From Paraspadella gotoi (taxonomy: Eukaryota > Animalia > Chaetognatha), in the NCBI GenBank assembly GCA_051294375.1, contig CM119265.1, positions 14,066,124 to 14,130,123 of the forward strand: a stretch of DNA of 64,000 nucleotides. Direction: 5' to 3'. Positions within the stretch are counted from its first letter, which is position 1. Each line of letters starts with the position of its first letter. This document shows positions 7,558 to 57,300 of the stretch, piece after piece. The position numbers were made by a program, and so were the translations under genes. A model generated the notes under the pieces. That model saw only the letters and a program-made list of their open reading frames with translations, searched no databases and had not been told where the DNA came from.

Positions 7558-8547
<990 letters not shown>

Positions 8548-8964: not shown

Positions 8965-9209
8965 GGCGGTATATTCACACCGCCTCACGTCCACCATCGT
9001 TCAGCCAAATCCATTGGCTCAGAGGGGGAACACACCATCCCAGGCGTTGTGTTTCATCCATAGTCCTAACGACTTCCATCTGCGTTGGCAAAGCGAGACA
9101 GTGCCAGTAACTGCATGCGTCACTGAGGGTCAGAAGCCCCCAAATCCAACAGTGAGATGCCCCATCCCAATGGGCATCACAGGCAACCCGGCTGTTGCCA
9201 TAAAAGTCC
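8965..9209 (-). repeat. Dispersed structured element, copy 1 (homologous to 32195-32459)
   Basis: Reverse complement aligns colinearly with 32195-32459; shared blocks include GCCCATTGGGATGGGGCAT, TCTCGCTTTGCCAACGCAGA, GGAAGTCGTTAGGACT, CCCCCTCTGAGCCAATGGAT and GGCGGTGTGAATAT. Confidence 0.85.
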
Positions 9210-9861
9210 ATCTTTTCTCATCCCAGTCTGGGCGTCAAAGTAAAGAAAACTTTTTTTATTACCATTGCAATGACGATTAGTTTTCTAATCGATTCAAATG
9301 AAAAACTCTGCTTCAATTTTAATCTGTTGAATACAAAGGATGTTCTCCCTCGCGTTGAGGCATTTTCAACCGTTTCAGGTTTTTTTACGTCGCACAGCTT
9401 CCGCTCTCCAGAATTACTCTTTTCAAGTAATCATTATCCCATTTGTCCACAAACGATCCCATCTTCTTTTTTTCCCTCTTCTCTTTATTAATCGTTATCG
9501 TCTCTCCCGACCCGTCACGTACCCTTTCCACTCCTTTTTTTTTCCCCCTTTATTTTCTTCCACCAAAAAAACTTCTCTTCATTTCATCTCTTTTCCTCTC
9601 ATCATTCTCCGGCTTCCACCATCTTGGATGGAAAAAAATAACTCGTTCTCATTGGCTTTCTTCAATTACTCATCTTCCGTTTCTGCTCAACCCTTCCTTT
9701 CTTCGGCTTAAACCTCAACCCAGTGATAAATGATTCGAAAGCGTGACGGAACGGGAGAGCGGGAAAAATTGTTTCAATTCCATCTCTTTACCACTTTTCC
9801 TAATGATTGACGTTATATCTGAGCGAAACGAAGGGCGAGAAGAGAGAGGAGAAGAGAGAGA

Positions 9862-9910
<49 letters not shown>

Positions 9911-10962
9911 AGCAGAGATTCGTTCTCTGTAACACGATGATAGACAAATAGCCATTCCTCAAAAGGCATCAATCATTTGGCGCGGGGTTCGGCCCAAAGA
10001 GCCGATCGTTAAGCGTCGAGATATGAATTCCATTTTTTTTTCTCTCCGTCCATTGGGCCGTTTCGTTCCGTTCTTTCCGTTGAGAGGATGTCTTACGTAT
10101 GTCCCGGTGAAAAAGGAAAAACAGTTATTTTTATATTTGCGAGTAAAACTTTTTTTTGGAAAAAGTAACTTTCGCTCACTGTCGCCAAGGGCAAAGGGAT
10201 GAAGAGATTATTCAATTCCCATAACGATTCTTTATACAATCATCGTCTTTATTTTATAATATTATAATACTACAATATTACTAGACGAATAACCCATAGA
10301 ATTAAGTCGCAATTTTATTTTGACGCGCTGGTTTTCCGGAACGAGTGTCCTTCGAGAAAAGAGAGAAGAAGGATAAGAGGAGGATTTCCTGTTTCGGTCT
10401 GTGCGAGATAAAAGGAGATGGGAGGACCGAGGAAGAAGAACCGTAAAAGTTAAAACAAGGGCCCTGGGCTTCCCTCTTGCGGTGGGGCGAACAATTTATC
10501 GGAATTTTGGGTCTGAGAATTTGAAATCCAGATCCGTTTCCAAATTATGCGGAAAAATTCGAAGCTAAAGTTTTCTGGAGCGAGAGGCCAGTTAAGGGGG
10601 GAGTGGGAAAATAATCGAAATTGAACCATGAACTATGAACTGTTAATCTTAATTAAACTTAAACTAAATTGAACCATGAACTATGAACTGTTAAACTTAA
10701 TCATAAGTGTAAGGCAAGAGATAATAAGATAAAGATTCACATTCCTAATGCGACGAACATAATTATTGAAGAAAAGGTAACGGACTATCATAATGTACAT
10801 ACTTGTAATTTATTGCATTTGAAAAAAATGAGAAGTCGCTTTAAGAAAAAAAAAGAGAAGTAAAAATCCTGAAGAAGCGAAGAAAAGAAGAGAAGAGAGA
10901 AGATGAGAAAAGAAAAGAAGAGAAGAGAAAACAGAAGATTGGGGTAAAGGGAACAGGATGTA

Positions 10963-11029
<67 letters not shown>

Positions 11030-11049
11030 AGAGGGAGAGAAAGAGAGAG

Positions 11050-11587
11050 AGACACAGCAGCTGGGTGACCATAGAACTGTGATGGACACAAGAGAGACCA
11101 GGAGGAGATTAGGCGAGGCATCTAAGGCGTGTGGGAACCTATTGACAGAGCGGGATCTTAAGGAGCAGAGGAGATAAAACGTGTCTCGTTGGAAAATCGC
11201 ACGTAGGCGAGAAATCGCGTCTCGGATACTTTTTTTTTGTATCCTTTTTTTTCTCTTTTCTCATTTTTTCTCACTTTTTATTTTATCTCCCTTTCTTAGT
11301 CTTCCCCTTTTTTTGTCCATTGAGGGAAGTTTAGAGGCATATTTGTAAAATATTGCTTGATAAAAATTTTAGAAAATAATATATTGTGGACGAACCTTAA
11401 GTTACCTCTGTGTCTGTGCTAACTACTATTCTAGGAAAAGTCAGCTATCAGAAAAATAGATTCCAAAGACTATCCAATACTTAGAAGTTATACACAGTAA
11501 TCAAAGGACTATCCACAAGTCTGATTCGGAACCAGCACATAGACACTCGAGACGATCCATCCNNNNNNNNNNNNNNNNNNNNNNNNN

Positions 11588-11624
<37 letters not shown>

Positions 11625-12112
11625 AGCAGCGGGGACATAGACGATGGACACAAAGAGGACAGGAGAGATTAGGGCGAGGCATCAAGGCGGGAACCATGAC
11701 AGAGCGGATCTTAAGGAGCAGAGGAGATAAAACGTGTCTCGTTGGAAAGTCGCACGTAGGCGAGAAATCGCGTCTCGGATACTTTTTTTTTGTATCCTTT
11801 TTTTTCTCTTTTCTCATTTTTTCTCACTTTTATTTTATCTCCCTTTCTTAGTCTTCCCCCTTTTTTTGTCCATTGAGGGAAGTTTAGACGGCCTATTTGT
11901 AAAATATTGCTTGATAAAAATTTTTAGAAAATAATATATTGTGGACGAACCTTAAGTTACCTCTGTGTCTGTGCTAACTACTATTCTAGGAAAATCAGCT
12001 ATCAGAAAAATAGATTCCAAAGACTATCCAATACTTAGAAGTTATTACACAGTAATCAAAGACTATCCACAAGTCTGATTCGGAACCAGCACATAAGACA
12101 CTCGAGACGATC
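11050..12112. repeat. ~500-bp direct duplication either side of a 25-N gap (probable assembly overlap); same pattern at ~12265-12420 vs ~12820-12975
   Basis: 11050-11562 repeats at 11620-12112; the copies differ mainly by 1-nt indels and flank a run of exactly 25 N. Confidence 0.8.
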
Positions 12113-14009
12113 CACTCCTGTCTGATTAGGAAACAGGACATACTAAGACCACAAAGACAAGCCACTACTGTACGATAGGAATTAGGACATGAGACACCAA
12201 AGACTTGAGTTAATCTTATTTCTTCGCGAAATCCACTAGGATTTTCTATGTCGTAATCTCCAATTGTGTTGGTCCTGGCCGTCAGCCTGACTTTATTTTC
12301 AGCGAGTATTTCCTTTTTTGCTTGGTGTGTCATTTATGACATTGCACTGTATCAATAATTCCGAACTTTTACTCCTTATAAGTTTCAGTGAATTCCTGAA
12401 GGCGGCGCTAGCAGGTCCTTGATTTGAGGTTTTTTTTCTGTCTTAACATATACACAACCAACTAAAGATAAATTTTTTAATATAAGTGGGACATGACCGA
12501 CGGACTGGACTGACGCGACTGGATCCACGACCGTGACCGAAAAGTGACGTTATACGAGTACTCGGCCGGCGCAACTAAACACGGACATAAGNNNNNNNNN
12601 NNNNNNNNNNNNNNNNAAGCAATTGTGGGAAATAGCGAGATAAGAAAGAAAAGACTATGCATTATAGTAAAAAAGTGAGGAAAAAAGAAAGAGTGCTCAA
12701 AACCAAATAAGACAATAAGGAATAATTTGCCGATGGAATTTGTTTAGATTCTACTTTTAAATTTCAAGCAAAACAAGATTTGAAAAAATAGAACAAAACT
12801 CAATAACAAGAACGGTAATTCCAATGTGTTGTCCGGCCGCATGTGACTTTTTTTCACGAGTATTTCCCTTTTTTGCTTGGTTGTCATTATGACATGCACT
12901 GTTATCAATGAATGTCCTGTGACTTTTACTCCTTATAAGTTTCAGGTAATTCCTGAAGGCGGCGCTTAGCAGTCCAGTCTCTCTTTCAACTTACTGTAGT
13001 CATGTATTTATGTCATGTCTGACGTTATCGGGAACCGGGAATAATAATATAGATTATAGAAGCTTTGGACCTATACCTTTATTATGGCATACATAGTTTT
13101 CACACTTAAAAATGCCTCTAATTTTGTATAAAGTCGCTCCTTTGAAACTAATCAATTTTGAAAAAAAGTAATGTAACAAGAAACAGGTCGTTTGCTTCTG
13201 CAGCAATTTGCGATTTTGTTAGGTTTAGACGAAATGTCAGTCTATCCAACAAGGAAGACTACGACGACGACAACGACGAGGAAGACGACAACGACATCGA
13301 TGAAACGCTGATCATCGGCGCTCTGGGACCAGAAATTCACGGAGGGACGGTTTCTCGTGGAGGAGAGAAGAAAAGTAAAATGAAAAGAAAACCGAGGGGA
13401 AAAAAAAGGATGAGGAAAACAAGGACGAGAAGAAAAAAAGGGAGACAACACAAAAAACGACGACGACGACGACCACAACGACGACGTCGATGGCCGCTGA
13501 TTATGACAACAGAGTGAAATGAACCACAAAAACAAAGACAAAGAGAGCAGACGTACGAAAACCCAAAAAAAAGTCAGAAAAAAAAAAATTTCTGACAAAG
13601 ATCGATCGCTCTAAATGGCGAACCTTCGGAACGTTTAGGAGAAACTAAAATTAGCAGGTATACCATACAATGTATATTGTATAGTCCATACATGGAGACT
13701 GCAGTTTATTCTTCAATTTAGCCTCGATAAGAAAAAGAGTTACTTTTCGAAGTTAATATCGAAAACTTGCAAATACTGTAATGTATTTGGATCATTTTGT
13801 GTTTACCTTCTCATCCAACAGGGAGACGTCGGCCAAAGAAAAAAAAATGGAGCCAAGGAAAAAATGGCTGAGAGAAAAATGGCCGCTCGGACCTCGGCGC
13901 GAAAAAAAGTCAACAAACAAAACTCTCGATCCTTTTCTTTTTTCTTCTTGGTTAGCTTCAGTCAATAAAAGGGTTAAAAGCAAGAAAGGAGCTCAGACAT
14001 ATATTTTTA

Positions 14010-14076
<67 letters not shown>

Positions 14077-15334
14077 AGAGAGAGGAAGACCCCAGTGCCC
14101 TGTTAGTAACTAGACTACACACGCAAGTAATTTTTTTTGTAAAGTGTAATTGAACATCCTGGTATAACTTTAAACAGGCATGACATAAAAAAAAAAAATA
14201 TAAGGATAAGACAAATCACTTGAGAAACAAAAACAAAGGAACTCGATGATCTCCGATGAAAGACGCGGTGGACGATTAAGAGAAAAACAAGAGGAGGTGA
14301 CGCTGACCTCCATCGACCAGACCAGGGGTCTAAATCTGTGATCGGAAATGTTTGGTCCCGAAAACCCGAATGTTTGTCGCTGATTTTCGACGAGAAGGAA
14401 AAAAACAACTCTTGTTTTGATTAGAAAGTTACTCCTGATGGTCAAAAGAGAAGGCGAAGGAAGTAGACTTTCGAAAATATCAACCCCTTTAGGCTTTACC
14501 GAAGAATCATTAATAGGGGGAGTGAGCCAAGAATATGACCGTTTCCGGAAGTCGTAAGCTTACGACCTCGTTGCCACGCCCACATCTTTGTGCGCGGCCC
14601 GGGCTACTTGGCAAATCGCCCATTCCACCCCTCCACCAAAAAAAGGGAGATAGATAAGTATATCGGGCGATTTTTAGTACGTCCTGACTCCTACAGATTG
14701 AAAAATACCATTGGCTATGCCAATAAATGGCAGGGAGCCATAGCCAAGCGGAAAATATTGACCAAAAAAAAAACGAAGAAAATCGACAAAACCGCCTGGT
14801 GATCATTGAAGAATCCTATCATTTTCTCGGACAATAAAATACGCAACTCGAAAATTCAAAAGAAGACTTTGCCAGATCCATAACTCAGACACCAGAGTCT
14901 GAGTCCGGCGCATTAGCATTAAGAGTCCGGAAAACTTAAGTCCTCGATTGACCGCGAAAGAGTGAAGTCCAGAGTCTCCAACGAGGTCCCGCCCTTCCGC
15001 CGCTAAAATCCTCGTTAACTTCTTTATGACGACTTTTACTGATTTTGGCGGACATAAAAACAGTTGGGGGCCTTTTCCGCCTTTGCTCTGTTTTTTTTTT
15101 TTACATTGATCGATTGTTTTGTATTTTTGTGTTTTGTTTTTTTCATTTATTTAACATTGTAAGAGGATATATAGAAATACATTTATTTTATTATCGATTA
15201 TGAAGGCCCGTAGCTTTAAATTTATTTTTTTTTGTTCGTTTAAACATATATAAGTGCGACTTGCTATTATTTTTTGGAGACCGAATTCCACTAGATATTT
15301 CTTATTCTCTCCCTTTTTTTGAGTGGTAAAAATA

Positions 15335-15490
15335 GTGCGCATGGGGTCGATATGACGTGTCTCTGCGTTGACCCCGGACCAAACTTTCGGGCTTCCGGCA
15401 CACCGGCAGCACCCGGCGGGTCAACAAAGAAATTCGGACCGCTAATACCGTCTCTGATGAAACCCGGAAAGGACCCTGCAATGCTAGGAA
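15335..15490. other. GC-rich self-complementary island, possibly related to 30493-30678
   Basis: Stems GGGGTCGA/TTGACCCC and GTTGACCC/GGGTCAAC; GGCACACCGGC...CCCGGYGG is shared with the minus strand of 30495-30520. Confidence 0.4.
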
Positions 15491-16266
15491 AAAATATAAA
15501 TTATAATTGTTAACTTAGTTTATACATCACGTATTAAAGTTAAACTACACGACCGAAACAAGATTTTTTTCCCGCGGAATGGACGGCACGAACTAAAAAG
15601 GATTTGGGAACCAAGAGGCGAAGGCGGGGAAGGGGGGGGGGCGAATTCGTTGAGCGAAAAATCCGACCAGAGGAGAAATCTTCGCTGGTGGGAAAATCAC
15701 TGTTCCCTTACCGACCTCTGTAAAACTTACAAGGGATTATCGTCGTTCTTCTTCGATCGTAATTGGTCCTCTTAAACTCCAAATATAAAAATAAATAATA
15801 ATGAAATTTTTTACATTTATTTTTCTGCTGGTAAGTTAAGACCTACAAAAACAAACTATCTTTATTATCTAATCCTCCTCCACTCTCAACGTTCACCCCA
15901 CGACCAAACTCGGCGATTCACCTTCGTGCATCGATGCTTGTTGTTTTTGTTTTCTGCCGACATTTTGCCGGGTTTTGCTTGGTCGAATTCAGTCACCAAA
16001 AAAAAAAAAGTATTGGAAAAAGATTCTCGAAACGGAATGTTCTGATCTGTGAACTGTAATAATTTTATACTTATACTTTAAAAAATTGCTCATTAAGATA
16101 ATATGATTCCTTAACTAGTCCGTACATTCAACTTTCGTCGCGTTAACTTTAAAACAAAATTTTTCACATCTTCTCAATTATTAAAAGTTTAGGAATATAC
16201 GATGCTATAAAACAATAAATGGTAAATCATAGAGAGGAGAGAGAGAGAGAGAGGAGAGAGAGAGAA

Positions 16267-16297
<31 letters not shown>

Positions 16298-18089
16298 GAG
16301 GAGATGAGGAGAGAGATTAAAAACGTTTTGATAATAGAAAAGTAAACTATAAAAGAAGGGAAACAAAAAAAAATATAATCTGGTTTTCGAGAAAAGTAGA
16401 AGCGGTAGAGAGAGATGAGCACTTTGTGAAGGTGAGGTTTTGAAACTGTAGACGAGCAAAAGGGCTAAGGGGTAAACACAGGTCAGAGAAAAACGATTTC
16501 CAACGTGGACCTGTGGACCTTTAAAAGCGACGGGGTTCCTAAGGGGACATCGAAAACGTCTGAATCAAAACAAACGAAGGAAGGAGAAAGAAAAATGCGA
16601 ATTCGGAAAGAATACGTAGATAAGGAAGAAAATGTTTGTTTTTAAGCCACTGATATCGAATAGATAAATACTATTTCTATAATTCGTCGTGTTAGGTCAG
16701 AATATAAAACTACCATATTCGAAATGCTTGAGCAGATATTTCTCCTACTACTTCTTTTTAAAAAGAGAATCACAAATCATCGCAAACTGCTCCTTTTCTT
16801 TCATTGAAAACCTTACCCTTTCTTTGCATCCCTAAAGCCACAAGCTGTTCAATGACCAATAAATGTTTAATCCCACGCTCTCTTCAAACACTACCCCAGA
16901 CCCTCTGCCGATCAAAAACCCTAAACTAAAACCGATCCCATAAACTTATAATTCGACTTCGCCCCCCCCCCTCTCAAAACCTTCGAATCCATCCGCCCGA
17001 ATCTCAAAAGATCTCCATGTCGCCCCTCCCCCCTCTCTCCATAAATCCCATTGAAACCTCGAGGCACAAATCATCTTTATCCCCTTCGAAAGGCGCTAAA
17101 TCCTTCGCCAAGAACTTTCGCCATTTTCAAGCTTAATTTCCCCCACTCGTCAAATCGCGAGGAGGAAACGGGGGGGGGGATAATAGGGGGGAACGCAGAA
17201 AGAATGGGTGAAGCGATACCCATCGAGGAAATGAGACGTAATCGAAAACCTTACCCCCAAGAAAAATCCTCTTGGGGCGGAAACTTGTTTAAATTCAGAA
17301 ATAGGGGACGATATAATAATGACAAAATTATTGTATGGATTTAAGATGCTAGTCGAAAGACTAAATAAAGAGTGTTATACTTAATGCTAAAAAGGGGGAC
17401 GCTGTCAGAGTACTTTTCTTCAGGAATGTTAAAATAGCGAAAGAAGATTGAGAGTAAGAGGAAGAAAAAAAGAGAACAGAAAAAAAAAGAGATAAATAGT
17501 TAAATACGTACATAAATAATGACTGGATTCGGAAAGAATCCGTTTTGATGGTATATTCAAGTCGTGGGTCACAATCAATGTGTCATAATTTTGCGAGGAA
17601 AGAGGGGGAAGAGAGAGAGAGAGAGAGAGAGGCAAACAGACAGACAGGAAAGACGGAGGGAATCTGGATCGGCCTTTTCAGCTTCTCTCTCGCTCAACGG
17701 AGTGGAAATGTAAATGTAGTGTTTAAATCGAAAAGGCTCGTCTCTTCCCGCAAAGCCACGACGGTGTTTGGGCTGCACTTACCTCGACCATCTCGCCCAT
17801 TTTCATTTTTTTCACCTTACCCTTATCTCCTTACTTTCAGCCAACCAATCGCTATTTGTCCGGTCACATCCTTTCTTTTCCGCCGCGTATTGTGAAAAAC
17901 GCACTTTAATATTTCCGAAGCTATTTCCGGTTTCTCCCGTCCGCCTCATGAAAATGAGCCGGAAGCCGAGCGGGTCCGACGGACCGAACACAACGTACCT
18001 CGCCACAATTATCAAATAATAGCGTCAAAGGCTCCAATCTGTCACTGGACACTGGACACAGTGGAGAGTGGACAGTCTTTGTTCATACT

Positions 18090-18808: not shown

Positions 18809-18894
<86 letters not shown>

Positions 18895-21100
18895 ATAAAA
18901 AAGAAAGGGAGGGAAAGAGTGCGTTTTCTGTCTTCACTTCTCTGAAATTCAGAAGAGCAAGGGTGGCCTCAAATCTCTGAGAAGCCGTTCATCACAATTA
19001 CGCCAGAAAAAAAAACAGCTTGAAGACGCAATAAAAATTTTTAAGCAGATGGCCGAAGAGAATGCCACTCTTTGATTTTATAAAATATACAAACCTTTGA
19101 AAAAAACTTGAATTGCTGTCGCTATTGCCGTTTCAGGAGCCGGACAATGGTAAAAGAGACCAATGTCGATGCATGAGAAATAGAAAGAAACCGAGTTCGA
19201 TATAAATGAAAGGAAAAAAAAAGGAAACAAAAGAAACTCGAGAGTTTCTTCTCGAAAACGGGGAGAACTCATCAATAGTCTGAATCGTTGAGAAAAAACA
19301 TAAGCGCGGGCCGCCGGGCCGGGGACAAAGACAAGACGGAATAAAACATTTTACGAGGGGAAAAGAAAGAATCTGGGGAAAGATTAAATCAAAGACGAGT
19401 CAGAATTAAACATTATACGGACCGAGGGGATGTAACTCAAAAGGATGGAGAGAAGAATCAATTTTTTTTTTAACACTCGAGACGATAACGACGCCTTTCG
19501 GTGCATTTTGTATGAAAAGCTTAATCTATTTACGTTGGTGAAAGTAAAAATCGTCAATTTATTAACAAAATCAAAATCTGGTTATCCGAAATTTATTTCA
19601 GAGACGGAAAAAATTATAAAAGCCACCAACTCTTTGCAAGACATCAGCAGCGAAGACATAAAGATGAAACGCTCGTCACATAAAAATGACGACTTTCTTA
19701 CGGAATACATGTGAATTAAAATGCAAATTCTTGTCTTAAATCCCGAGGCGAAGGAGGTGCGGAATTCTTTAAAAGCCTTTCGAGAAAGCGGCGAAAAAAA
19801 TAACCCAACAGAAACAAAATGGCAAATAATCAAGCAAACACAAACAATAAGATTTAAAAAAAAACATTTTTGCACTTAGTTTTTTACCCTTCCTTTCAAA
19901 TTACTTGTTTACACTTTTACGCTTGTTTCTAAACATTCCTCGTTACGAAAACTAGGATTTATTTTAAATTTTTGAATTCTCGTTGGGATTTTATTCTTCT
20001 CTTTATGTTTTCTCTCTCAGAACGTCGACCCCCTGACGACGCGACGGCTTCGTTTATGGGCGAAATAGAAAAAAAAAAACACAAAAAATAAATAAACAAA
20101 GAAAAAAAAGTGAAGATGGGACATAAAAGGAGAGACGAACGTGATGCGTCAGCGTTAGCGCGATGGTGAGACCCGCGAGACGAGGGTGGGAAAAGATGTG
20201 ACGTTGGTGGAATGGGGCTGATAGGACTGGGGAAAATATTAAGTAAGGAAGCAGAATTCTCGCTGTAAAACTCGAGGAATAAGATAAGAAGGGAAGATAG
20301 AAAGAAGGAAGTGAAAAAAATGAAAGAGACGCGAAAAAATTGTTAAAAAATGAATTTTTTTCTCAGATCAAAAACGCGGGAAAAAAAAATCAATTTTCAG
20401 ATCCCCTAAAAAAAGATGATTGACAACATACGTTATTAGGCCGATCTTACAATTATTTTTCGATGTTAGTTTGTTTTTTCTTTATATTTTAATGGATGTT
20501 AGGATTAAATTTTTTTTTATTCATACACTGGATATTCTAATATACAAAGATATATAATATATTTCTTTATGTACATCAGTTTCCTCTCTCTTTCTCTCAC
20601 AATTATTCCCACCTTTTTACTCTTTTTTTTAAAACCCTTTTCTCCGTTCCCCGAAATTAAAATTAATTCATCAATCGCAGATTTTATTTACCAACTCTAA
20701 TCGATTTTAAAATTTTAAAATTACAATCCAGCCTGTCATTCTGATACTTCAGATCGATTGCGTAGTTGAATTGATTTTTTTACAAACTAGTTTTTTCAAA
20801 GTCAAACCTACTTGTCAAGACCTACTTCTTTTCCTTCCCTGCTTCATGATCAGTTCTACAATTAATGACAGCCTTTTAATTTTTAGTTCTCCCTCGTATC
20901 CGTCTCATGATCGCCACTTCATCGAGAGTCCTAAGCAACAATTCGACTTTCGTGTTGACGAAAATCAAAACTTAAAAATCGAAGATCGACAATTACTATA
21001 ATCGCCGTATAGCTTGGATATAAAAAACAAAAGCAAAGTACCGAGCGCGAAAGATAATTTTGTGCGTTAAACTTTGTTTAAAAAATAATAACGATTGAAA

Positions 21101-24100
21101 ATGATGACATCGACGAAGTTTTCCAACGAGGAAACCGACGACGAAGAAATCGAGGAAGAATTAGAACATTTAAAATTTGACGACGACAACGACGACGACG
21201 ACGACGACGATGGTCGGACGTCGGTAAAAACTCCTGTCGTTGGAAAAACTTTCACGAAAGCGGAGGAGCGTTCGGTGAAGCGAACGTCCGAAAAAGGAAA
21301 GACAGTCACCGCCGAGTCAGTTATTTTAGACCGGTCCGTTGCAGTAGAAACGTCACGCGGAAAATCACAGGGTATAAATGAAAATGAGGAACCGTTGACG
21401 ACGGTAACACCGACAACAAAAACCCAAACTTCACGTGATTGCCGTGAGAAAACGTCTCACGGTCGGCGCCGACATCGCCCTCGAAAAAAATGCGCAGCTA
21501 ACAAGGAGACAAACCTCGGGTGCGACACTATGATTTTGAAAGCTTCAACGTCTGACATCGCAGCGTCTTCAGCAGCGGGAACTTCACCGACGAGGGCATC
21601 AAATGAAAAACTCACTTCCTTTAAAAAATCCCCATTAACCACTGTCGGACCAGACGGTGATTTCGCTTCAGACTCAACTCCTTTAACCGACGACGTGGCA
21701 ACGACTCACCATCCAGACATGTTGGAAAATGGTGAAGCCTTTCTAGATGAAGAGGCAGCTTCGACGTCTGGTATTCAAACGAGCCGTTCGCTCTCGATAG
21801 AAACAGAAGCCTCTTTTTCGTCTACCAGTGGGACGACTTCCGCCAATACCGCTGCTGAAACAGCCACCTCCAACAACGCCGTCAATCTTTCCAGGGCTGC
21901 TGCGAATCCTTCTCCGCCGACAACGGGAAATTCTGCGACGTTAGTGAGTCGCTACAAAAACATCCGTGCCGCCTTCAACCAAGACGGCGTCGTCGCTTAC
22001 AATCGCCTCAGCCATCTGCTGCGTCGAGTCTTTGACGGCGGAGGCAACGGTGGCGCCTCGGGCGGCGTTTCGCTGGAGGAAGAAGCGGCGTCTTTAATCA
22101 ACGCCGCCGGACGAGGTGACATCGACGGATGCCGCAAAATTCTGTCGTCCCGAGAGTCGGCCAACCTTCTCGCCAACGCCAAGATCGAGGGTCATACGGC
22201 TTTGCACGTGGCGGCCCGTCACGGCCACGCCAAGGCCGCGTTGACGCTGCTACGTCATGGCGGCGACCCTCAGGCGGTTGACGCTGACGGAAACAACGCT
22301 CTCCATCATGCCGCCATCGGGAACGAACCTCACGTCATCGTCGCTCTCGTGGAAGGGCGACGAGGGACGGAGGGATCGGCGGGCGCGGGCGCCGCCGATT
22401 TACGATTATCGACGAATCGAAGAATCTTAAAGAACGAAGTGACTTCGCGATCGAAAGTCGTCGGCGTCAACTCTTTGGTCGAATTTTCTCCCCCTTGCGA
22501 CCTCAACGCCAGAAACGGCGACAAGAAGACGGCGCTTCATTTGGCCATCGCCCGGGGTTTCCCCGAAGTGGTTCGTCAACTGCTCGTTCTCGGCGCCCAT
22601 CCCAATCTGCAGGACGACCTCGGTTCGACTCCGCTTCACGAGTCAGTCAGACACCCGGGAAACGAGGATGTCACGGCGTTGCTGTTGCGTCACAAGGCCG
22701 ACATCACCATGACTGACAACAATGGATGCAATCCGATTCACTTGGCCGCCATATTGGTGTGTTTTACTTAATTACTATCTATACTGCTTTACATGTACAA
22801 AAGACTAAATATTTTTGATTTGTTATTCTAATTATAGTATGCAGTATTGTATATGTATGTATATGTATATATGTATGTATGTATATTTTTGGGACGATTT
22901 TATAGGGAAAACTTTTAAAGACAAACCACTACGTACAAAATCAAAAAAGCAATCTTTTAATCACAGGGTAACCTCGGCAGCATGCACTTGCTGATGCTAC
23001 GCGTCCAACCCCACTTTTCATGGTTGGCAACGGCGCAGCGCGAGGAGGACGGATTCACGGCTCTGCACATGGCGGCATTGCGGGGCCACGCGAAGATAGT
23101 CGAATGCCTTTTGACCCGTGGGAAATGCGACCCGAACATTCGCGCGACAAAGACTTTGCAAACGGCACTGCATCTCGCCGTCGATCGGCGACGCTTCGAG
23201 GTTGTTCGCATCCTCATCCTCATAGGAAAATGTAACGTCAATGCGACAGACAAGGACGGTGACACCCCGCTGCACGAAGCGTTACGTCATCACACTTTGC
23301 TACAACTCAAGCAGCTCGAAGAAGTTTGTTGCAAGAGCACTGAGGTAAATTGGAAAAATAATTGCCGCGGTAGGGCGTATATAAATGGTCTTACATCATG
23401 ATTATTTCAGAGTATCGCCGATTCGGCATTGAGTTCTTCGTGTTCTTCACTCACAACGCCACTCGTTTCCGAAGCGGCTCCTCCGCAGACGTCAAGTAAA
23501 GAGCATCCAACTTCCGATTCTTCACTCAAACGGCCAATCCCTCAGTCCGCCAACTCGTCTGAGCTCAAGCCCCTCGTCGATTGCAACCTCGATCTGCAGC
23601 AAAACCAAAAGTCATTCGGAGCGATTTCCATTTTTCTGGTGGAAAACGGCGCCGACATACATCAGAAAAACGTCAAGGAGCAATCGCCCGTGGATTTGTG
23701 TCCGGATCCGCACCTGCACAGAGTTCTGGTCAAGTCCTACGAGGACGTGTTGCGGGGGAAGAAGACAGCGAAGGAGCAGATCCGTCGTGTCGACGTCTAC
23801 GAGCCGCCGCATCACAGATTCAGAGATTTCGCCTTGGCCAACATCAACGGAAATACTCAGGTTGACTTCAATTATAGAGAAAAAAAAACACTTTGTTATA
23901 ACTTATTTATTATCACAACTTCGCCATCAAGGATCGAAAACTGCGATCAAAATCGGCGAAACGCCTGGACGGACGCGACATCGTCGCTCAAAAATACGCG
24001 GGAGAGGCCGTCCACGCGGCGACCAACCCCAGCGACTCTAACGCGGCCAAGAAAAACTCGTCGGACGCGTTCGACGCGCTGGTCGCTCAAAAAGTCTCCG

Positions 24101-24318
24101 ACGCAGAGAAGAGAGAAGCTGAATCCACAGAAATCGCCAAACTGCAGCAGCAACTGTTCGACCTTCGCCGTCGCATCACTTGTCCCGTTTGTCTCGACAG
24201 GCTCAAGGTCATGGTCTTTCTCTGCGGACACGGAACTTGCCAACTTTGTGGTGATGAACTCAACTCCTGCCCCATTTGCCGCAAGATCGTCCAGAAGAAG
24301 ATCCTGTTGTACAACTGA
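21101..24318 (+). CDS. mib: Mind bomb-like ankyrin-repeat/RING E3 ubiquitin ligase; exons 21101-22756, 22967-23344, 23411-23860, 23932-24318
   Basis: [10 protein letters not shown]...LINAAGRGD entry to the ankyrin block, ankyrin repeats ([48 protein letters not shown]), post-ankyrin DLCPDP, coiled coil KLQQQL, terminal [48 protein letters not shown] as in MIB1. Confidence 0.9.
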
Positions 24319-24815
24319 GGATTACATCACTCATTTTTAGACTAAATACAGAACTAGACAATTCTTGACCCGCTATTGCCTTGTTCCACCTTTGTGAAGC
24401 TTTTATTTAAATCTACTTTCTTTCGCTTTCCCCAGACACATACGATGAGACATTTCGTTTGTTACATCGCATAATTTTTCTCTCTGTTTACTTTGGGTTT
24501 AATTTTTGAACTTTTCTTTTTCTTTTTATGTTTTGTGTTTACGTCTTCTCGGTTATTTGTCATTTTCGTTATATAATATTCGCAGAAATCGACGGCGATG
24601 TCTATCTATATGATTTAAGATCGTCAAAAAAATATTTGAGAAAATCTTTCGCTGGGGTAAGTAAGACCATGTAATCCGCTTAATGAATCCTCTTCCTCAT
24701 TTCCAACCTCTACCCGTAAAGCTAACCACAAAATCGATCAGTTACCTTACTGACTCTAAGTTACCGTCTTTCTTTGTCTTTAACAGTCGCACAGATTTGA
24801 GACAAATATCACGCG

Positions 24816-27027
24816 ATGACCGCGAGTGCTCAGCCGCCGCAAAACAATGACACTTACACGTTCACTAGTCAACCCAAAAACCTCAATCAGAGAAAGTACA
24901 AAACCCAGCAGGTACAAATCCATTTTTAAACTCATATTTTTATGCGTTATTAAGAATGAACGATTGATTTTGATTGTGAATTATCAAGCCCGTCCCTGAG
25001 GAGGGGGACCTCGTCGTCAATCACTATGGCAACCTCATGTGGGATCGGCGAGTCGTGCGGGGCAACACATATGCTCAGCATATTTTGCCAGGTACTTTTT
25101 AAGAAACTGATTCTATACGTATGTATGTTTCATTAACGAACGTAATAATTAAATTACTCGCAGCCACGCAGCAGCCGGATCCTCTTGAGATTCAGCGGCA
25201 GCAGGAGGCGCGGAGACGAGCGCTGGCCAGACGCCGCGCTAAGGAGCAGCTGCGTCCTCGCTCGCCCGACCCCATCGATGGGCGGAGACACCAGGTTTGG
25301 GATTAGTCTAAGAAAAAAGGGGATGGATGACTGACTTCAATGACTTAGAAAAAGGTTTCACTGACCTTCTTGAAATTCCGACGAAGATATGGGCCTTAAA
25401 ACTTCCAATGCCGTCTACAGGACGTCCAGACTGACCTGTACCTGGAGGAATTGTCGGATAGGGTGGAGGAGGCCGACGTGGCTTGTCAGACCGATCTGTT
25501 CCTCGATCGACCGCCCTCTCCTCTCTTCATTCCCGCCAAAACCGGATGCGACGTCGCCACTCAGATTTGGGAAGGTAAGACTGAGATATTTGATTTTTAA
25601 TTTGATCGGGTTTCAAATGTTTTTTTTTTCTTTTGCTGTTGTTGTTGTTTTGGTACCAGAAGTTTTTCTTTTTTTTTTCTTTCTTAAATATTTCGATCTT
25701 TCGATTATCTTTACTTTTGTTTTAACATTGATTGATTTTTTTTTTATTGATCGGTTGATTCATTAATTTAATTCATTAATGCAATTTATTCCTTCTTTCT
25801 ATCTTTTCATCGCTTCCTAACTCTGTCCTACAGGCGACCTCTTCGACTACGACATCGAAGTGAAGCCAATCCTGGAGGTGCTCGTCGGCAAGAACATGGA
25901 ACAGTCGCTCCTCGAGGTGCTGGAAGAAGAAGAGCTCGCGCACCTCCGCGCCCAGCAACGCGCCTTCGAGGAGCTGAGGAACGCCGAGCTAGTGGAAGAG
26001 CAGAGGCTGGAGGAGCAGGTGAGCTCGGGGTATTGCGGCGGCGGCTGCGGCGGCGGCGCCGGTTGAGGTTGAGGATTAAGTGAAAAAATCCCCGGACAAT
26101 GGGCGGAACGTTACGAGTGCGGGCGTCGGACAATAGGAATCAAGGAGAGGGGGAAGAGAAGGAGGAGGAGGAGGAGGAGGATTTTTTTAAATGGAAATCG
26201 ATTGAATCGAATGTTGGATTCGTCGATGGGGAGGATGAGAGAGAGACAGATGGAGACAGAGACGGTATTGGGTAAAGGGTGAGTGAGAGAGAGACGGTAT
26301 TCACCGTATTGAGGAAAGGATGAGAGTGAGGGGAAACGGGACCGGACTGGTATCGGACGGGACCATTGTCTCTCGCCGAAGATGACATCTCGGGCGATCT
26401 GATAATCCCGTCGCCTTTCCCGATCATTGTTCGCGACGAAGATCGAAAATCTATTTATAGTTTTAAAGTAAAAATTATGTCGAAGAACTTGTCATTTGTA
26501 AGTCAAATTGGCGAAATGAATTTTTAATTCGATTCATTTTTACATTTAGTATAAATGATCAATTCGTTAACGGTGTATGTTTCAATGAGGGATGACAACT
26601 TGAATGCTTTGTTTGACAAAAACGAAGAAACAAAAGCCATTACGGTTGCTTTAGTAGTTCTTAACGACGCCGACGACACCTACCGACAACGACGGCCCGA
26701 TCACTGGCCTCAGAACTGCATCAGGTGCCACCGAATTTAGATCCTAAACTGCGATTTAGCCGTCGGTGGCGATGAAAAATAAACCAGGCACTGAGGAGAC
26801 CGAACACTCAGTATGGGGGCTGGATGCCGAGGTTCTTCGGAGTTATAAGCAACGACTTTGTGAACGAACAGTTCCGGGACAGAGTATTGGTGCCTGGTGA
26901 TTAAGAGAACCAGGATTGGGGAAGTAAGGGCGCGGGCTACGGGATTAGCGGGAGGCATCGGCCGATAAAGATCCAGGGTGCTGGACTGAAAAGAATGACG
27001 TCATTTTTAACGAGCCTGCCACTCTCT

Positions 27028-27096
<69 letters not shown>

Positions 27097-27175
27097 TCCA
27101 ATTCCAATATGGCTCCGAACCCGCGCAGGTTTTTTTTTAATCTTATTTTACAAAGTGGCGGACTCTCGCAGAGAT

Positions 27176-27251
<76 letters not shown>

Positions 27252-27342
27252 GCGGTGGAAAATAAAGGAGGATAAAATAAAATAATGGTGGGAAAAATTA
27301 ATAGGGGAAAGAATAAAATTAGAGAGATGAATGGGCAGACGG

Positions 27343-27435
<93 letters not shown>

Positions 27436-27659
27436 AAGTGCGCGAGTGGTAAACGCTTGTGGCGACTAGAATGCGGAGATATCTAATTAATCTATATTCT
27501 ATAATTGTAATAAAATCTATCTAAAAAAAATGGACGTTTTTGTCTCGTTTCAGGAACGACGCCATCGCGAGGAGAAGGAAAGAAGAAAGAAGCAACAGAG
27601 GGAGATTTTGAGAAAGGAAAGAGAAACGGCGGAGAAGATAGCCGCAGGGCTTTTGCCAG

Positions 27660-27729
<70 letters not shown>

Positions 27730-28246
27730 TAACTATATATATATAAAGTTCAGTACCCACTCACCTTCTCTACCCTCACCTCCCCCTCAGCACTATCTCT
27801 CCGATCTCGTGCCATCCGTGTTCGGGACTTTGAGCGAGAGCGGATATTTCTACGACCCCGTGGAGAGAGACATCGAATTGGGCTTCATTCCTTGGGCCAT
27901 GGATCTCGCTTGCATCAAGCTCAAGACGGGTCCGTTTATCGTTACTTTTTATTCAATTATAAACTTATGCTAAATTAAATATGTCGTAAGGCAAATCTTT
28001 TATTGGGACTAATCATCAATTTTAATACCTCGCGTTAATAAAAAATGACGGAAATGGGCTTTCCCCCCCCCCGATGCCCTTTTGTTTCGTTCAGCCCTCG
28101 TGTCCCGCACCGTTTTGGATCTGATCATTCGCGAAGTGACCATCGACAGGAAGGAGCATATCATCCCCGTCGAGATGACGGAAGGGGAAGAAGGGGAGGA
28201 AGGGGAGGGGGAAGGGGGAGTGGGAGAGGACGGAGAAGAAGAATGA
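24816..28246 (+). CDS. RSPH3: Radial spoke head protein 3; exons approx. 24816-24911, 24989-25091, 25164-25294, 25421-25574, 25834-26018, 27554-27659, 27791-27929, 28095-28246
   Basis: TYTFTSQP, YGNLMWDRRVVRGNTYA, DVQTDLYLEEL, FLDRPPSPLFIPAKTG, GDLFDYDIEVKPILEVLVGK, YLSDLVPSVFGTL...GYFYDPVE are RSP3 hallmarks. Apparent 1-nt deletions near 27645-27660 (expected KIAARAFAQ) lie next to a GA tract. Confidence 0.93.
26693..26990 (+). other. GC-rich multi-stem island in an RSPH3 intron
   Basis: GCCACCGA/TCGGTGGC, ACCAGGCAC/GTGCCTGGT and CTGGAT/ATCCAG pairings; C(TTCG)G tetraloop near 26835. Confidence 0.45.
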
Positions 28247-28499
28247 GAGGAGAGAGGGAGAGAGAGAGAGAGGAGGAACCCGATCGGAGTTTTAGGAGAA
28301 GATAAGAAGAGGAAGTAGTGGATAGAGAGGGAGAGAGCGACGAAAGAGGGAAATGGGACAGAGCGCGTTGATTTTTTTTTTTTAAATGATATTGTAAAAA
28401 AAATGATTACCTTAAATATTTTTTTTTTAATTAATAAAAACAAATTTTTGTATCTGAGCTGTCGACATTCGCTAATGATAGTAAGCTTTTTTTTTTTCG

Positions 28500-29205
28500 C
28501 GAAATTAGCTCCCGACAACGGATAAGGCAATTATGACGAGCAGTCTTATCGCTTAACAGCGCTCAAGGACGCTGAAAATGATATCTGCTTTCATATGCGA
28601 GAATTGAAGGACGAGCACTCGATGCGGTATTGTAAAAAAAAAAGCGGCAAAAAAGTATGTCTTATCTTCACGTAGTTAAGAATATAGTATATTGTTGTTA
28701 TATTACTTATATTTTTGTTAACGTGTAATTTCCCTGTCGCTCTCGAAATTCACTTTTTATTTTTTTTTAATTTTCTCCTCTCACGATTTTTTTTTCACAA
28801 AAAAAAAAAAACGTTTGAAAAGGAAATCCATTCGTCTTCCGTCGACGTGACGTGACAGCGCGCAAGTGTTGCGCACTGAGGGAAAAAAAAGGTTGCGCAC
28901 ACGGGGAAACGTCGCCCGAGACAAGAAAAATACGCGGGGGTAAGGAAAAAGGGTAAGTGAGGCTTCAAAATGGAATTTACGCGAATCGTAAAAGCCGCAG
29001 CCGCAATATGTTAATTGGATTTGGAGACATTTTATGACGCCTCTCTCTCTTCTCTCTCTCTCTCTCTCTCCTCTTCTCTCTCCTCTCTCCTCCCGCCGCT
29101 TTCTGATCACTGGGGCGATATGTGTCCACTGACAGTCTTCTATTTGTCTGCTGCATGCTCTACCGTTGGCAACTTGGACGAGACTAATACGCCATAATAT
29201 TTAAA
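28500..29205. repeat. Segment repeated at 43878-44472 (direct) and 44903-45005 (inverted part)
   Basis: Near-identical text with scattered indels, e.g. GAAATTAGCTCC...GACGAGCAGTCTTATCGC and GGATTTGGAGACATTTTATGACGC. Confidence 0.75.
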
Positions 29206-30492
29206 AAAGAAGAAAGAGAGGAACGAGAAAGAAGAGAAGAAGAAGAGAGAAGAAAGAGAGAGAGAGAGAGACGACGCTGAAGAGATTGACCTCTATTAGT
29301 CATGACGGAAACGTCGCCGTTTGATCTTGACGCGTTCTGTTTTTCTTAGGACAGGCTGCCATCGTAGTCCCAGTTCTGCTTAGACACTGCTTTCCTCACT
29401 TGGTCAACCCCATCCTGTGTTCCGAACCTGCGAATATCCACAGTTTCACGCACTGGTCTTTTCCGTTGGAAATGAGGTAAGCGTCCCGTCGCCCTGCGCC
29501 CGAAAAACAAAAGAGACGATGAGAATAAGTCCATGTATAATTAACCCTCAAACAAAAATTGAACCAGAGGTCCTAAAACCCAACACCACTCTTCTTAACC
29601 TTTGGAGTCGACGAACGTCACGCCATCGTATGTTCCAGTTCAAGACGCCGACTGGTTTGGCCCGTTCGTCATCGAGCATGCGTCGTCCCACACATTTACG
29701 AGCCCATCGTCTTCCCGCCGCTAAAAGTATCTGCGAGGTGGGCAGTCAGCGAAGGAGACAGGTTGACGTCGTCCTCGTGAGCCTTCGAGAGCGGAATCCA
29801 AGGTTTCAAGATTTTCGGGAAGGGGTGGAACATATGTGACAACATAATAGATTTAAACAGGCAGAATCCCAAACGTCACCACAACTCACGTTGATGGCAG
29901 AGCGTCCGCATTGAGGCTTCCCGGTTCATAAATATAAAATGGCGCCCGTCGTTAGCGCCGGCATAATTTCTCGGTTGTCCATAGAAAATCGAATGGAGAA
30001 ACAGGCAAAAGCGATGCTCTCCCGGCGCATGTCGAGCGCGATCTGAGTGGACTGCGCGTAGATGTGCAAAAATTATGGACAGAGGGCACCAGGAGGAGTA
30101 TATAAAATAACAGGCCTGACCGGATTAAGAAGTGTAAGATCAATTAAATCTTAGGATTAATTTACATTGACTACCGGGATTTTTCGGTTGTATGTGTTCG
30201 ATTCTTAAGAGCTACCGGAAAAAAAAAAAAAAGACATTGCCATTGTAAGGGTAGAAAAACTAATTACAAATTTATTTTGAAACCCCCTAATCATATTATC
30301 CCTAACCACCACTAATCCCCAAACTACCCCTAATCCTTTAACCACCCTTAACCTAAATGTTAACCGTTTAAAAAATGTAACATAAAATATTTTCTTTCAT
30401 TTCGTTGCTTAATTTGTTTGAGTTGGAAAATGAATTGTTTGTTTACGTGAACAACGTACAACGTAACAACTTTAATAGTTTTTATAAAAATC

Positions 30493-30678
30493 TCACCACC
30501 GGGAGAGAAGCCGGTGTGCCAGCACGGACCATCCCAGACATCACCGGCCTGAATCTTTTTGAACCCTTTGAAAAATGGTCCGTTGCAGACAATCGTAGCG
30601 CGCGGAATATAATTGTCCTGACAAGCGCCTCAGGAAAGTGCAACCGTCAGTCGAGTAACTTCCGCAAAATGCTTTCCT
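30493..30678. other. GC-rich island with pseudoknot-type pairings
   Basis: GCCGGTG (30510)/CACCGGC (30542) interleaved with ACGGACCAT (30524)/ATGGTCCGT (30575); also GACAAT/ATTGTC, CCTGA/TCAGG, GCGGAA/TTCCGC and AGGAAAG/CTTTCCT. Confidence 0.5.
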
Positions 30679-31189
30679 AAAAGTTAAACAAATTTGAAAG
30701 CAAATACGTATTGTAATAAAATCTTTAGAGACAAACGAAAAATTCGGTTGGAATTAGCAATTATTTTTAATATTGTACATTGTTTCGTCTCTTAGGTTGG
30801 TACGAGTCTTCATCAGGCAAGTGCTATTCCACATTTTTTCGTTTCATCCCTTCTAAACTATTTAATTAGCCAAAAAGAAAGTCAAAATACAAACGTATAA
30901 ATATCAAACTTACCCCCAAACTCGGGCAACCCTCGAAGGTTTGTTGGGCTATAAAACATGGAGGAGATGGCACCGCCAATCGCCCAGCATACAAATTGCC
31001 GCGCGACGTCTTGCATCGAGCCCACGGAGACCAAGCTCGCGATCCCGCAACACAACAGGGAATGGCCGATTCCGAAAGCCCACGTGGCTGAGTTTTGAAA
31101 AGAAATGCAATAAACATGTTTTGAGAAAACTCCCTTCGCCAAACCGAGCCTGAGACGTGATCACACCTTCCCTTGCAGGCTTGTCTTTT

Positions 31190-33790
31190 CAAGGGCTATT
31201 CTCTCTTTTCGATCTTTTCCGCTTCTTCTCTTCCCGCTTTGGCGGCCCTTGCGCTCGCTTTCGGAAAGCGTGCCGAAGCCACGTGACGCACCCGACGGCC
31301 GGGTGCCGGGAAGGCATCACCCTCGGCGGCTCCGCTCGATCGAAGGCAAATCGGTCGAAGAAAGACACGGGGAATGTCTGGGCCGAATTGGCCCCGAACA
31401 TGGTTGCGCTTGGAAACGAGTAGCTGCCGGCGGAACAGCGGAGGCTCCGGCTGTGCACGGGATGCAGCAAGTGGAGATGTTGTGAGAGGGGACCTCGGCC
31501 AGAATTTTGAAGATTTCTTAGGAATGGGAAACAATTGAATTAATTGGTAGGATTGAAAAGTTCAGGGAGAGAATCCAAGGCGAAAACCTGCATGAGATCC
31601 GAGGATTGTAAACGTGCAGATCCGGGGCGGGGGTCAGGCTCAGGCTGATGAACGACGGCGATTGTCGTCCGAAGTTCGGAATCATTTTGGCGTCGTCGGA
31701 CCGCGACGTAATCAGAATCGTCATCATTGTCGCCGTATCCGATGCCCTCTTCGTACATTCATGTCTGCCCAATCAATAAGTTTCAAAAAAGTTTTTCAGA
31801 TTGATAAGGTCTCCGTGACTAACTGATTCGCATCAATTTAAGGGGCATTGAAAAATAATTCAGTAATCTATTCGACCGCCATTTTTCTGTAAAATAAATC
31901 GAATTCATCGAAAGCTACTTTTTCTTCCCTGGACAAAACAAGATATTGACTTACACCTCATCGTCTCTCTGCTAGTGATCTTTTGGAATTTCTGCGCATG
32001 AAAGGAGCCGTTCGGCAAAAATTTTACTTTCGCGACCGTGGTTTTTGGCGTACTTTAAAAAACTATTTAAAAATATTTAATTAAAAAATAAATATTACCT
32101 AATTATCCTAACCCCTCTTAACCCTAAACTATCCCTAAACCACCATAACCCTTCAACCACACTAACCGGTCGGCGAAAGTAAAATTACATTAAGGGACTT
32201 CAATCGGTTACCTATGGCAACCGGGTTGCCTTGTTGAGCCCATTGGGATGGGGCATTTTTTTTCTCAACTGGTTGGCTTCCGACCCTCAGTGAGCCTTCT
32301 GTAACTGGCGCGGTTACCTAGGACGGTTCTCGCTTTGCCAACGCAGAGGGAAGTCGTTAGGACTGTGATGGATTCGCAAAGCCTGGGATGGTGCGTTTCC
32401 CCCTCTGAGCCAATGGATTGGTTAAACTTATGGTGATGTGAGGGCGGTGTGAATATCCGTATGCATGTATCACAAAAAGAATAATCAAAAAATATTTATA
32501 AAACACTTAATAATACTAATAAATTCATTAAATTGTTCCTTTAAAATCTATTAAAATAAAATTTTCATTAAACTAAAAAAATGTTATAAAAATAGTTATA
32601 CCTGTGAAAGAATTAACGAGTTTAATCAATTTCTTTTTTAACGCTCCAGATTTGATAGTCCCTGTACTTTAACTATATCATAAGACCAGAGGACAATCAA
32701 GGTGAAGTTTGTGGAGGTTACTGGTATTAATAGGGTCTTTACAAGTGACACACGACACCCGCCGCTAGAAAAAATATCATTTCAAACTTGTGAAAATTTT
32801 TTGATAACTGTATTTAACTAAAAGTGGTTAACTTATTTCATTACAATATTTCTTTAAAATGTAATTTTCTTCAAATTTCCAAGAGCCTTAAAAAAAGTTT
32901 TTAAGAAAATGTTCAGGAAAAATTAAATAAAAAAAATTGAAAAAAAATTAAAAATAAAAAAACAAATTTTTAAATCAAAGACGACTTAAAAGCAATTTTC
33001 CCGCTCATTGCTAAAGTCAAATCATAACCACTCAATATGAAATTTTAATATATAAAAGATTTTTTGGTTTTTTACTAAAGAAAAATATTTCAGATTAATA
33101 AAAAATTTAACAGCTGCAAATGACGTTTTTTCCTGGGCGGGTTTTCGTGTGTCACCTTGTACAATATTAGTATATTAATAAAGAAGAAAAGTACTCACTA
33201 ACTCTGCTGGTGCCATCGATCCAAGGTTTGACCGGCCATGAAATCTAGACTTGACCGGGTGCGAAGGAGGAAGCGGAGGATTTCTGGCGAGGTCGACCTG
33301 GACTCGAGTCAGAGTCGATTCTCGACGCTGCTCGTTTTCTGAGCTCCGGCTGCGGAGTCGCTTCCCGCTTACGGCCCGCGTCAGCCTATATCGTCGTCGA
33401 AGGCGTCTTCCCTCGTCTCCAGCGGGTTGGCCCGTCGGGGCCGCCCGGACTCGTTCGTCGACTCCCTCGACCGGGGAGTCGTTTCGCGATCGAGCGGACA
33501 AACGAGGCGGCGACCTGTTGGACTTATCGCCAAAAAATCTGTCGACAGAGGTCGTAGAATGAAGGCGCGGCTGGAAGCAGCCGTTGTCGTTGACGTACGG
33601 GTGAATCAACGTCCGGGCGAAACATCGCGAGAGTCGGTCGCGGTCGCCTGGTCCCTGAGAACAAAAGGCGGCACCAGCGTGAGCCGGAGAAAGTTCTATG
33701 AAGGTGACCTCGTCGAAAAGAGGGAACGAAGGAATGAAGATTTCCCGTAGATCGAGGCTTTCAGAGTGAATCTGGCCCCCATAGGCTGAG
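31190..33790 (-). CDS. Putative exons of an unidentified gene (~33786-33255, ~31765-31589, ~31517-31190)
   Basis: Open GC-rich blocks after pyrimidine-rich AG acceptors (AYGGQIHSESLDLREIFIPSFPLFDEVTFIEL...; HECTKRASDT...DLHVYNPRISC); no family recognised, frames not fully resolved. Confidence 0.3.
32001..32192 (-). mobile_element. Helentron-associated (HINE/DINE-1-like) non-autonomous element
   Basis: Subterminal inverted repeats AATTTTACTTTCGC(C)GACCG at ~32020-32038 and ~32167-32186, short hairpin GCCG-TT-CGGC outside one repeat, internal degenerate CCTAAC tract, T-rich flanks on the minus strand. A similar CCTAAC tract lies at ~30280-30365. Confidence 0.55.
32195..32459 (+). repeat. Dispersed structured element, copy 2 (homologous to 8965-9209)
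   Basis: Colinear with the reverse complement of 8965-9209; differences concentrate in loops or keep stems paired. Confidence 0.85.
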
Positions 33791-41174: not shown

Positions 41175-41218
<44 letters not shown>

Positions 41219-41244
41219 AGACGAGAGAGAGAGAGAGAGATAGA

Positions 41245-42515: not shown

Positions 42516-42593
<78 letters not shown>

Positions 42594-57227: not shown

Positions 57228-57300
<73 letters not shown>

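Follow-up and report, generated by a model that had tools for sequence, protein, structure and literature searches.

A dispersed, fixed-ended element with a predicted type-P5 twister ribozyme in the chaetognath Paraspadella gotoi

A stretch of 64,000 nucleotides from the chaetognath Paraspadella gotoi (GenBank assembly GCA_051294375.1, contig CM119265.1, positions 14,066,124 to 14,130,123), referred to here as the window and numbered from its first letter, contains two diverged copies of an element of about 250 nt. Judged from its sequence, this element very probably carries the fold of a self-cleaving ribozyme, a twister of type P5; it belongs to a dispersed family with two fixed ends and is considered below as a candidate retrozyme-like parasite of a Naiad/Penelope retrotransposon. 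A preliminary description of the window had reported the repeat as an unclassified structured RNA, and both the two aligning copies and the four stems listed for them were recovered in our analysis. Positions 9202-8971 on the minus strand align with 32213-32456 on the plus strand at 76% identity over 250 columns (E about 1e-41), and the local score of the pair was 266, whereas 194 random window segments averaged 31.5 and did not exceed 62. The copies are oriented oppositely and lie 23 kb apart, and no third copy was found within the 64,000-nt window. Their features, given in the ribozyme sense, are the following.

8962..9202, plus strand: copy 1, 241 nt, 55% GC, both ends intact
8965..8984, plus strand: 5' terminal hairpin of 6 bp, 3 nt in from the TGT end, from the sequence and the listed pairs
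9003..9082, plus strand: 5' domain, a 6-bp hairpin followed by a predicted three-way junction (7-bp closing helix, bulged hairpin, 4-bp hairpin)
9084..9150, plus strand: damaged type-P5 twister of copy 1, with P5, the 3' strand of P2, GA, the GC of L2, P3, P4 and L4 kept
9152..9199, plus strand: 3' domain, a bulged hairpin and a 6-bp 3' terminal hairpin, 3 nt in from the ATA end
32213..32466, minus strand: copy 2, a rarer variant of about 254 nt, whose 32466 end is approximate because the 5' terminal hairpin has decayed
32272..32342, minus strand: type-P5 twister core of copy 2, the only descriptor match in the window
32315..32316, minus strand: predicted self-cleavage site, between U and A, by homology to twister features (PMC5408937, PMC8501958)

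The twister core and its strand

The conserved letters of L1 (UAA and GA), L2 (GC) and L4 (GU..AAGCC) follow each other in type-P5 order on the minus strand of copy 2, and the same letters occur in the loose contig ends of other copies, obtained from four DNA runs. The 5' part of the core consists of a P5 strand (32342-32337), the P2 partner strand (32333-32330), GA (32329-32328), an extra A and the T1 partner (32326-32324), while the 3' part holds a short P1 hairpin, UAA (32316-32314), P2, GC, P3, a P4 strand and L4 (32284-32275). Both pseudoknots can form in copy 2, T1 by three Watson-Crick pairs between CCG and CGG and T2 between GC and GC, and the predicted cut divides the element into 151 nt on its 5' side and 103 nt on its 3' side. 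A descriptor based on published twister features (PMC5408937), written after the first parse and allowing one extra base and three of the four P2 pairs, returned a single match, on the minus strand of copy 2 at 32333-32275, and none in 300 shuffles of the window or 20,000 shuffles of copy 2.

Both copies in the window have suffered damage. In copy 1, about 17 nt comprising the T1 partner, P1, the cut site and the 5' strand of P2 are replaced by 3 nt at 9100-9102, and loose ends at 9099/9103 reveal the missing letters in other members of the family. Copy 2 has lost the 3' strand of P4 and the linker and carries one extra A after GA, which is absent in 64-72% of the depth. The A of copy 1 at 9132 is G in 97-99% of the depth, restoring the middle T1 pair. 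P2 has three of four pairs, P4 has three of four in copy 1, and P1 is a hairpin of only 2-3 bp, an element reported to be dispensable for twister cleavage (PMC5408937). The damage is the likely reason why Rfam missed the ribozyme. A scan of the window gave 14 matches at E up to 1, none of them on either copy, and searches of the single copies yielded nothing significant and no twister match on copy 2; the best result was a weak partial match of twister-P1 to the plus strand of copy 1 (9105-9144, 13.1 bits, E 6.9 and 1.8, against a gathering threshold of 67.2). Compared with the type-P5 twister family (RF02684), the element shares the strand order, U/AA, GA, the GC of L2, GU...AAGCC in L4, T1 and T2, the optional P3 and termination in P5, and it differs in that the window copies are broken and far under the Rfam threshold, with an A-C at the base of P4 besides the incomplete P2 and short P1.

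These results reverse the strand favoured in the preliminary description, which had preferred the 32195(+) orientation on account of G-U pairs and had seen no canonical twister core. The core lies on the plus strand of copy 1 and the minus strand of copy 2, and folding z-scores of the two copies were also better in this sense (-1.8 and -2.1) than in the opposite one (-1.3 and -0.6). The GGCTTCY word, which had been proposed to pair over a long range with GGAAGTC, is the reverse complement of L4, and the pairing is thus unnecessary. Several resemblances considered by inspection for the previously favoured strand, namely to a hepatitis delta virus-like fold, P4 of RNase P/MRP, H/ACA or telomerase RNA, vault RNA, signal recognition particle RNA, a TAR-like loop and a CRESS origin, did not fit.

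Ends, copy number and conserved structure of the family

The family was studied in contigs from the four runs, about 6,300-6,400 contigs per run in the comparison with copy 1. A search of sequencing runs listed no RNA run containing the region, a result without bearing on expression. The contigs differed from unique flanks at 25 letters over about 1,170 nt in one comparison and at none of 142 nt in the copy 1 comparison, indicating that the runs derive from the same or a close species. Summed depth, which is not equal to copy number, reached 0.1-2.6 million within the element against 252 and 26 in the flank, and we infer that the genome holds thousands of copies. At copy 2, its own letters at 32268-32273 had low depth and its variant stems were rare in the runs.

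Loose contig ends accumulated at both borders of copy 1, with 195 contigs in each run at 8961/8962 and 209 and 198 contigs per run at 9202/9203, which defines an element with two fixed and equally frequent ends. The flanks beyond both ends were mutually unrelated and of single-copy depth; their consensus, with an agreement of only 0.41-0.44, consists of alternating A and T on either side, mostly T before and A after the element. Each end begins with 3 nt (TGT at the 5' end, ATA at the 3' end) followed by a 6-bp hairpin, and the termini form an imperfect inverted repeat of 6 nt (TGTGGC / GCCATA), although none had been seen previously. The ends given before, 8965 and 9209, are to be corrected to 8962 and 9202/9203; the shared GGACTT belongs to the flank, because depth is single-copy from 9212 on and the loose ends lie at 9202/9203. 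No target-site duplication was found at the two copies examined, copy 1 with intact ends and copy 2 with one decayed end.

The element has a GC content of 52-55% and is non-coding, and the frames across either copy gave no Pfam match. Its pattern had no match in viral contigs and prokaryote genomes, and searches of metagenomes gave none and then eight loci with no similarity past the seed. A fragment of the untranslated region (UTR) of a long interspersed nuclear element (LINE), or a housekeeping RNA, had been named as an identification that would overturn the first interpretation; the element, dispersed and fixed-ended, is neither a LINE fragment with ragged ends nor such an RNA. Two minor observations concern the ends. 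The terminal 9-mer also occurs at window positions 7698 and 25025 without wider similarity, which we take as chance. The flank at 32204-32213, just beyond the 3' end of copy 2, duplicates 10 nt of the cut-site region of the element (32312-32321), possibly as the result of a template jump during insertion. This flank also forms a palindrome at 32207-32221 that resembles an RFX X-box.

Variation within the family supports conservation of the fold on the ribozyme strand. Fifteen of the 19 variant rows were used, the four at 9100-9105 being excluded as they fall in the deletion of copy 1 at low depth. Copy 1 departs from the family majority at seven near-fixed positions: at four of these the majority letter brings back a Watson-Crick pair in a stem, at one it rebuilds the middle T1 pair, and two are unpaired; the majority letters at 9054 and 9078 give back such pairs in the 5' domain. 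Seven of eight polymorphic sites fall outside pairs, and a weak pair is broken by the remaining one (P 0.024 for no more than one site being paired, with 53% of bases paired), and the minor variants at 9009/9010 are located in a loop of the 5' domain. In the sense of the preliminary description none of the eight would break a pair; the count in the ribozyme sense was used. The comparison of the two window copies is less favourable. Their compensatory changes amount to one true double substitution (A-U to G-C) and matched insertions or deletions in two stems, and stems are no better conserved than loops (106 of 124 paired and 99 of 117 unpaired positions, Fisher p 0.86); RNAalifold on the two copies, run in the earlier sense, was uninformative. 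We read this as decay of both window copies, with selection acting on master copies. The earlier suggestion of structural selection therefore holds for a single strand and at the family level, not for the window copies themselves. Similarly, the proposal of a mobile or multi-copy, structurally selected, retrozyme-like RNA with a ribozyme is supported, except that the ribozyme belongs to a known class and lies on the other strand.

A CCATCC-like word occurs four times on the ribozyme strand of 8962-9202, in loops and linkers, and two of the four become complete with the majority letters at 8999 and 9054. It might be a protein-binding motif.

Proposed propagation and alternative explanations

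We consider the chances about even that the element is a twister-type, retrozyme-like parasite of a Naiad/Penelope retrotransposon. In a more specific and less probable version of this reading, the 250-nt RNA would circularise, and a Naiad reverse transcriptase would write it back as monomers of exactly unit length, all opened at a single linker between two hairpins, the twister replacing the hammerhead that Naiads have been said to lack. In the general scheme, a master locus with two ribozymes, in tandem or partial tandem, would be transcribed and the twister would cut between U and A. A host ligase would link the two ends of the unit-length RNA, or a template jump would bridge them. TA-rich DNA would then be nicked by the endonuclease of the helper, whose reverse transcriptase would begin at an internal site, the 6-nt linker separating the two terminal hairpins, about 105 nt 3' of the cut. 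A single round of copying would yield a monomer that keeps the central ribozyme whole and has each of its ends at this linker. A ribozyme that cuts in the middle of the unit is useful only if the RNA carries two ribozymes in a row, an arrangement known from plant LTR retrozymes and from animal retrozymes, and single copies cannot regenerate the unit and would decay, as in both window copies.

A helper of the Naiad type would agree with the apparently TA-rich targets, the lack of a duplication at copy 1, the P5 twister and the position of the end, about 105 nt beyond the cut. Naiads insert into (TA)n targets, often without discernible duplication, attain copy numbers in the tens of thousands and have been described without a canonical hammerhead (PMC8557442). 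For a purified protein of the Penelope type, PMC11167929 reports nicking at ATT and an internal start of reverse transcription at 85-92 nt 3' of the ribozyme cut, compared with 103 nt between the predicted cut and the 3' end of our element. Animal retrozymes are tandem hammerhead repeats, for which dependence on Penelope-like enzymes has been proposed (PMC7229834, PMC7761336; bioRxiv 10.64898/2026.07.22.740005). In the supplement of PMC8557442 (File S5), searched with 18 of 64 possible loop words, we found full sense P5 twister patterns, parsed by eye, in the 3' UTRs of two of 54 Naiad consensi, Naiad_Mley and Naiad-1_Movir, located 236 and 226 nt before the element end; the second has GAA in place of UAA. 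Seven of the nine loop-motif matches, three in Naiad open reading frames (ORFs) and four in Chlamys, were rejected by eye as twisters. The two patterns qualify the claim that Naiads are without a ribozyme.

A number of observations count against this mechanism or limit its support. The scheme calls for a tandem master, and no head-to-tail, inverted or strand-switching joint was present among the 15 of 53 joints listed, although rare tandem masters may occur. The copies observed are fixed-ended monomers and not the tandem or permuted units that the preliminary description had suggested looking for. No shared tail of 30-40 nt was seen among the 12 of 466 loose-end rows listed, nor were 5' truncations, partial tandems or inverted copies seen among the contig rows listed, and 5' ends of Penelope-type insertions are usually ragged (PMC8557442). 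Circular folding gave no gain over linear folding, and 53-57% of bases are paired in the copies, compared with more than 70% in animal retrozymes (PMC4918200). Outside the ribozyme core no likeness to the two Naiad UTRs was noticed by eye in the published consensi, where the cuts lie 226-236 nt from the 3' end as against 103 nt here. The hammerhead is dispensable for insertion in vitro (PMC11167929). No reverse transcriptase or endonuclease domain was found in 231 window ORFs and 12 further frames, and no helper combining reverse transcriptase and GIY-YIG was present within the window. In the family-majority core, P2 still has a C-A opposition at its base and P4 an A-C, and P1 stays at 2-3 bp, so that the activity of this core may be low. 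Finally, the family data come from a single study, and the structure model was drawn with the variant data in view, making the variant test partly circular, a support and not a proof.

The main alternative, though an unlikely one, is a solo long terminal repeat (LTR) of a Gypsy-dependent LTR retrozyme in an animal host, with a twister in place of the hammerhead and both ends set by the integrase. The central ribozyme, the 250-nt unit, the two fixed ends and the short terminal inverted repeat, starting with TG and ending with TA, would agree with such an origin. In plants, retrozymes are mostly seen as isolated ribozymes within solo LTRs that measure 300-400 bp and have 4-bp duplications (PMC4918200). 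The flank consensus also fits a palindromic duplication of 4 or 6 bp, and an internal region represented by one or few contigs would escape the loose-end consensus. However, copy 1 has intact ends without a duplication, neither copy is followed by a primer-binding site, the element terminates at its 3' end in TA instead of CA, and animal retrozymes are reported without LTR, primer-binding site or polypurine tract (PMC7761336, PMC7229834). At the two window copies, which face in opposite directions, no LTR pair enclosing a spacer with these two features was seen.

It is improbable that a longer Naiad-type element left the present unit as its 3' stub, or pseudo-LTR, through truncation at a hot spot, the 5' terminal hairpin. 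Although the P5 twisters of Naiads are located in 3' UTRs, and abundant short 3' ends are typical of these elements (PMC8557442), the 5' breaks observed here are as precise and frequent as the 3' ones (195 compared with 198-209 contigs), and the element is GC-rich while the two Naiad UTRs are AT-rich.

We give little credence to a non-autonomous DNA transposon of the IS3EU/GingerRoot type with the ribozyme as cargo, for example one destroying read-through transcripts. The flanks are symmetric and one end, TATGG, matches the IS3EU signature TAYGG (PMC12730594), but the other end is TG, copy 1 lacks a 6-bp duplication, and the inverted repeat measures 6 nt instead of more than 30 in IS3EU and 100-150 bp in GingerRoot (PMC10045372, PMC12730594, PMC6839031). 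Moreover, the preserved structure extends over the entire unit, suggesting a stage as RNA. Cryptons, also considered for TATGG, were rejected, as in these elements TATGG stands at each of the two ends as a direct repeat (PMC3212892, PMC13565253), unlike in this element. Hardly probable at all is an RNA polymerase III-transcribed short interspersed nuclear element (SINE), or else an element that depends on RTE/LINE machinery and has its twister at the 5' end, as in Schistosoma Perere-3. RTE elements are known to have twisters at their 5' ends (PMC8501958, PMC7761336) and the ribozyme strand has two A-box-like words, but these words, at +54 and +125, are hairpin arms, no B box within one mismatch was found on that strand of either copy, no tail was seen in the rows listed, there is no tRNA match, and the cut is internal instead of at the 5' end of the insertion as in Perere-3.

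Surroundings, comparison with known elements and significance

Copy 2 is flanked by small repeated elements with terminal inverted repeats at 32018-32186 and 32740-33161, the first of which has a degenerate CCCTAA tract; such a tract also occurs at 30280-30370. Large inverted repeats lie at 41218-43845 and 56129-58390, with arms of about 1.2 and 1.0 kb that are 96-97% alike, and the second includes a tandem array of about 90 nt. The host genes noted in the window encode a USF-like bHLH protein (2486-3323), a Mind-bomb-like ankyrin/RING protein with unusually long exons (21092-24318) and radial spoke protein 3 (25400-27970). The USF sequence matched many animals at 60-85% identity, with no close relative among them.

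Like animal non-LTR retrozymes (PMC7229834, PMC7761336, bioRxiv 10.64898/2026.07.22.740005), the element is a non-coding monomer within 150-400 nt, with a self-cleaving motif (predicted in our case), many copies and a likely Penelope-type helper. It differs in having a twister instead of a type I hammerhead, whose CTGANGA is absent from both strands of either copy, in occurring as dispersed fixed-ended monomers instead of tandem arrays, and in its 52-55% GC and branched fold. With plant LTR retrozymes (PMC4918200) it shares the ribozyme in the middle of the unit and a fixed-ended unit mostly found alone; the animal host, the twister, the shorter unit, the lack of a 4-bp duplication at copy 1 and the absence of any primer-binding site or polypurine tract seen here set it apart. 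Naiad elements (PMC8557442) resemble it in the apparent (TA)n-like targets, in lacking a clear duplication, in their high copy number and, in two of 54 consensi, in a sense P5 twister pattern near the 3' end, whereas our element has no ORF, and ragged 5' ends, tails and inverted copies were not seen among the rows listed. The twisters of Schistosoma Perere-3 and RTE elements (PMC8501958) likewise reside in animal retroelements and tolerate a weak P1, but there the cut sets the 5' end beside the target duplication, upstream of the ORF.

The element would work like a retrozyme but falls outside both retrozyme kinds described. Its ribozyme class and the retrozyme life style are known, while their combination, predicted here from sequence, in a fixed-ended animal monomer is absent from the literature searched. 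In that literature, which left most subscription papers outside its scope, no short dispersed twister element or twister retrozyme was found, and the twisters at RTE/Perere-3 5' ends were (PMC8501958). The ribozymes so far reported in retrozymes are hammerheads, and the location described for twisters in animals is the 5' end of RTE-type LINEs. If our interpretation is true, a very abundant, short, fixed-ended element with a central P5 twister would indicate that the ribozyme class is exchangeable in such parasites. It would also provide a natural test of why Penelope-type elements retain a ribozyme at all, given that the hammerhead was dispensable in vitro (PMC11167929), and its thousands of natural variants of one twister would constitute a ready data set for covariation and activity.

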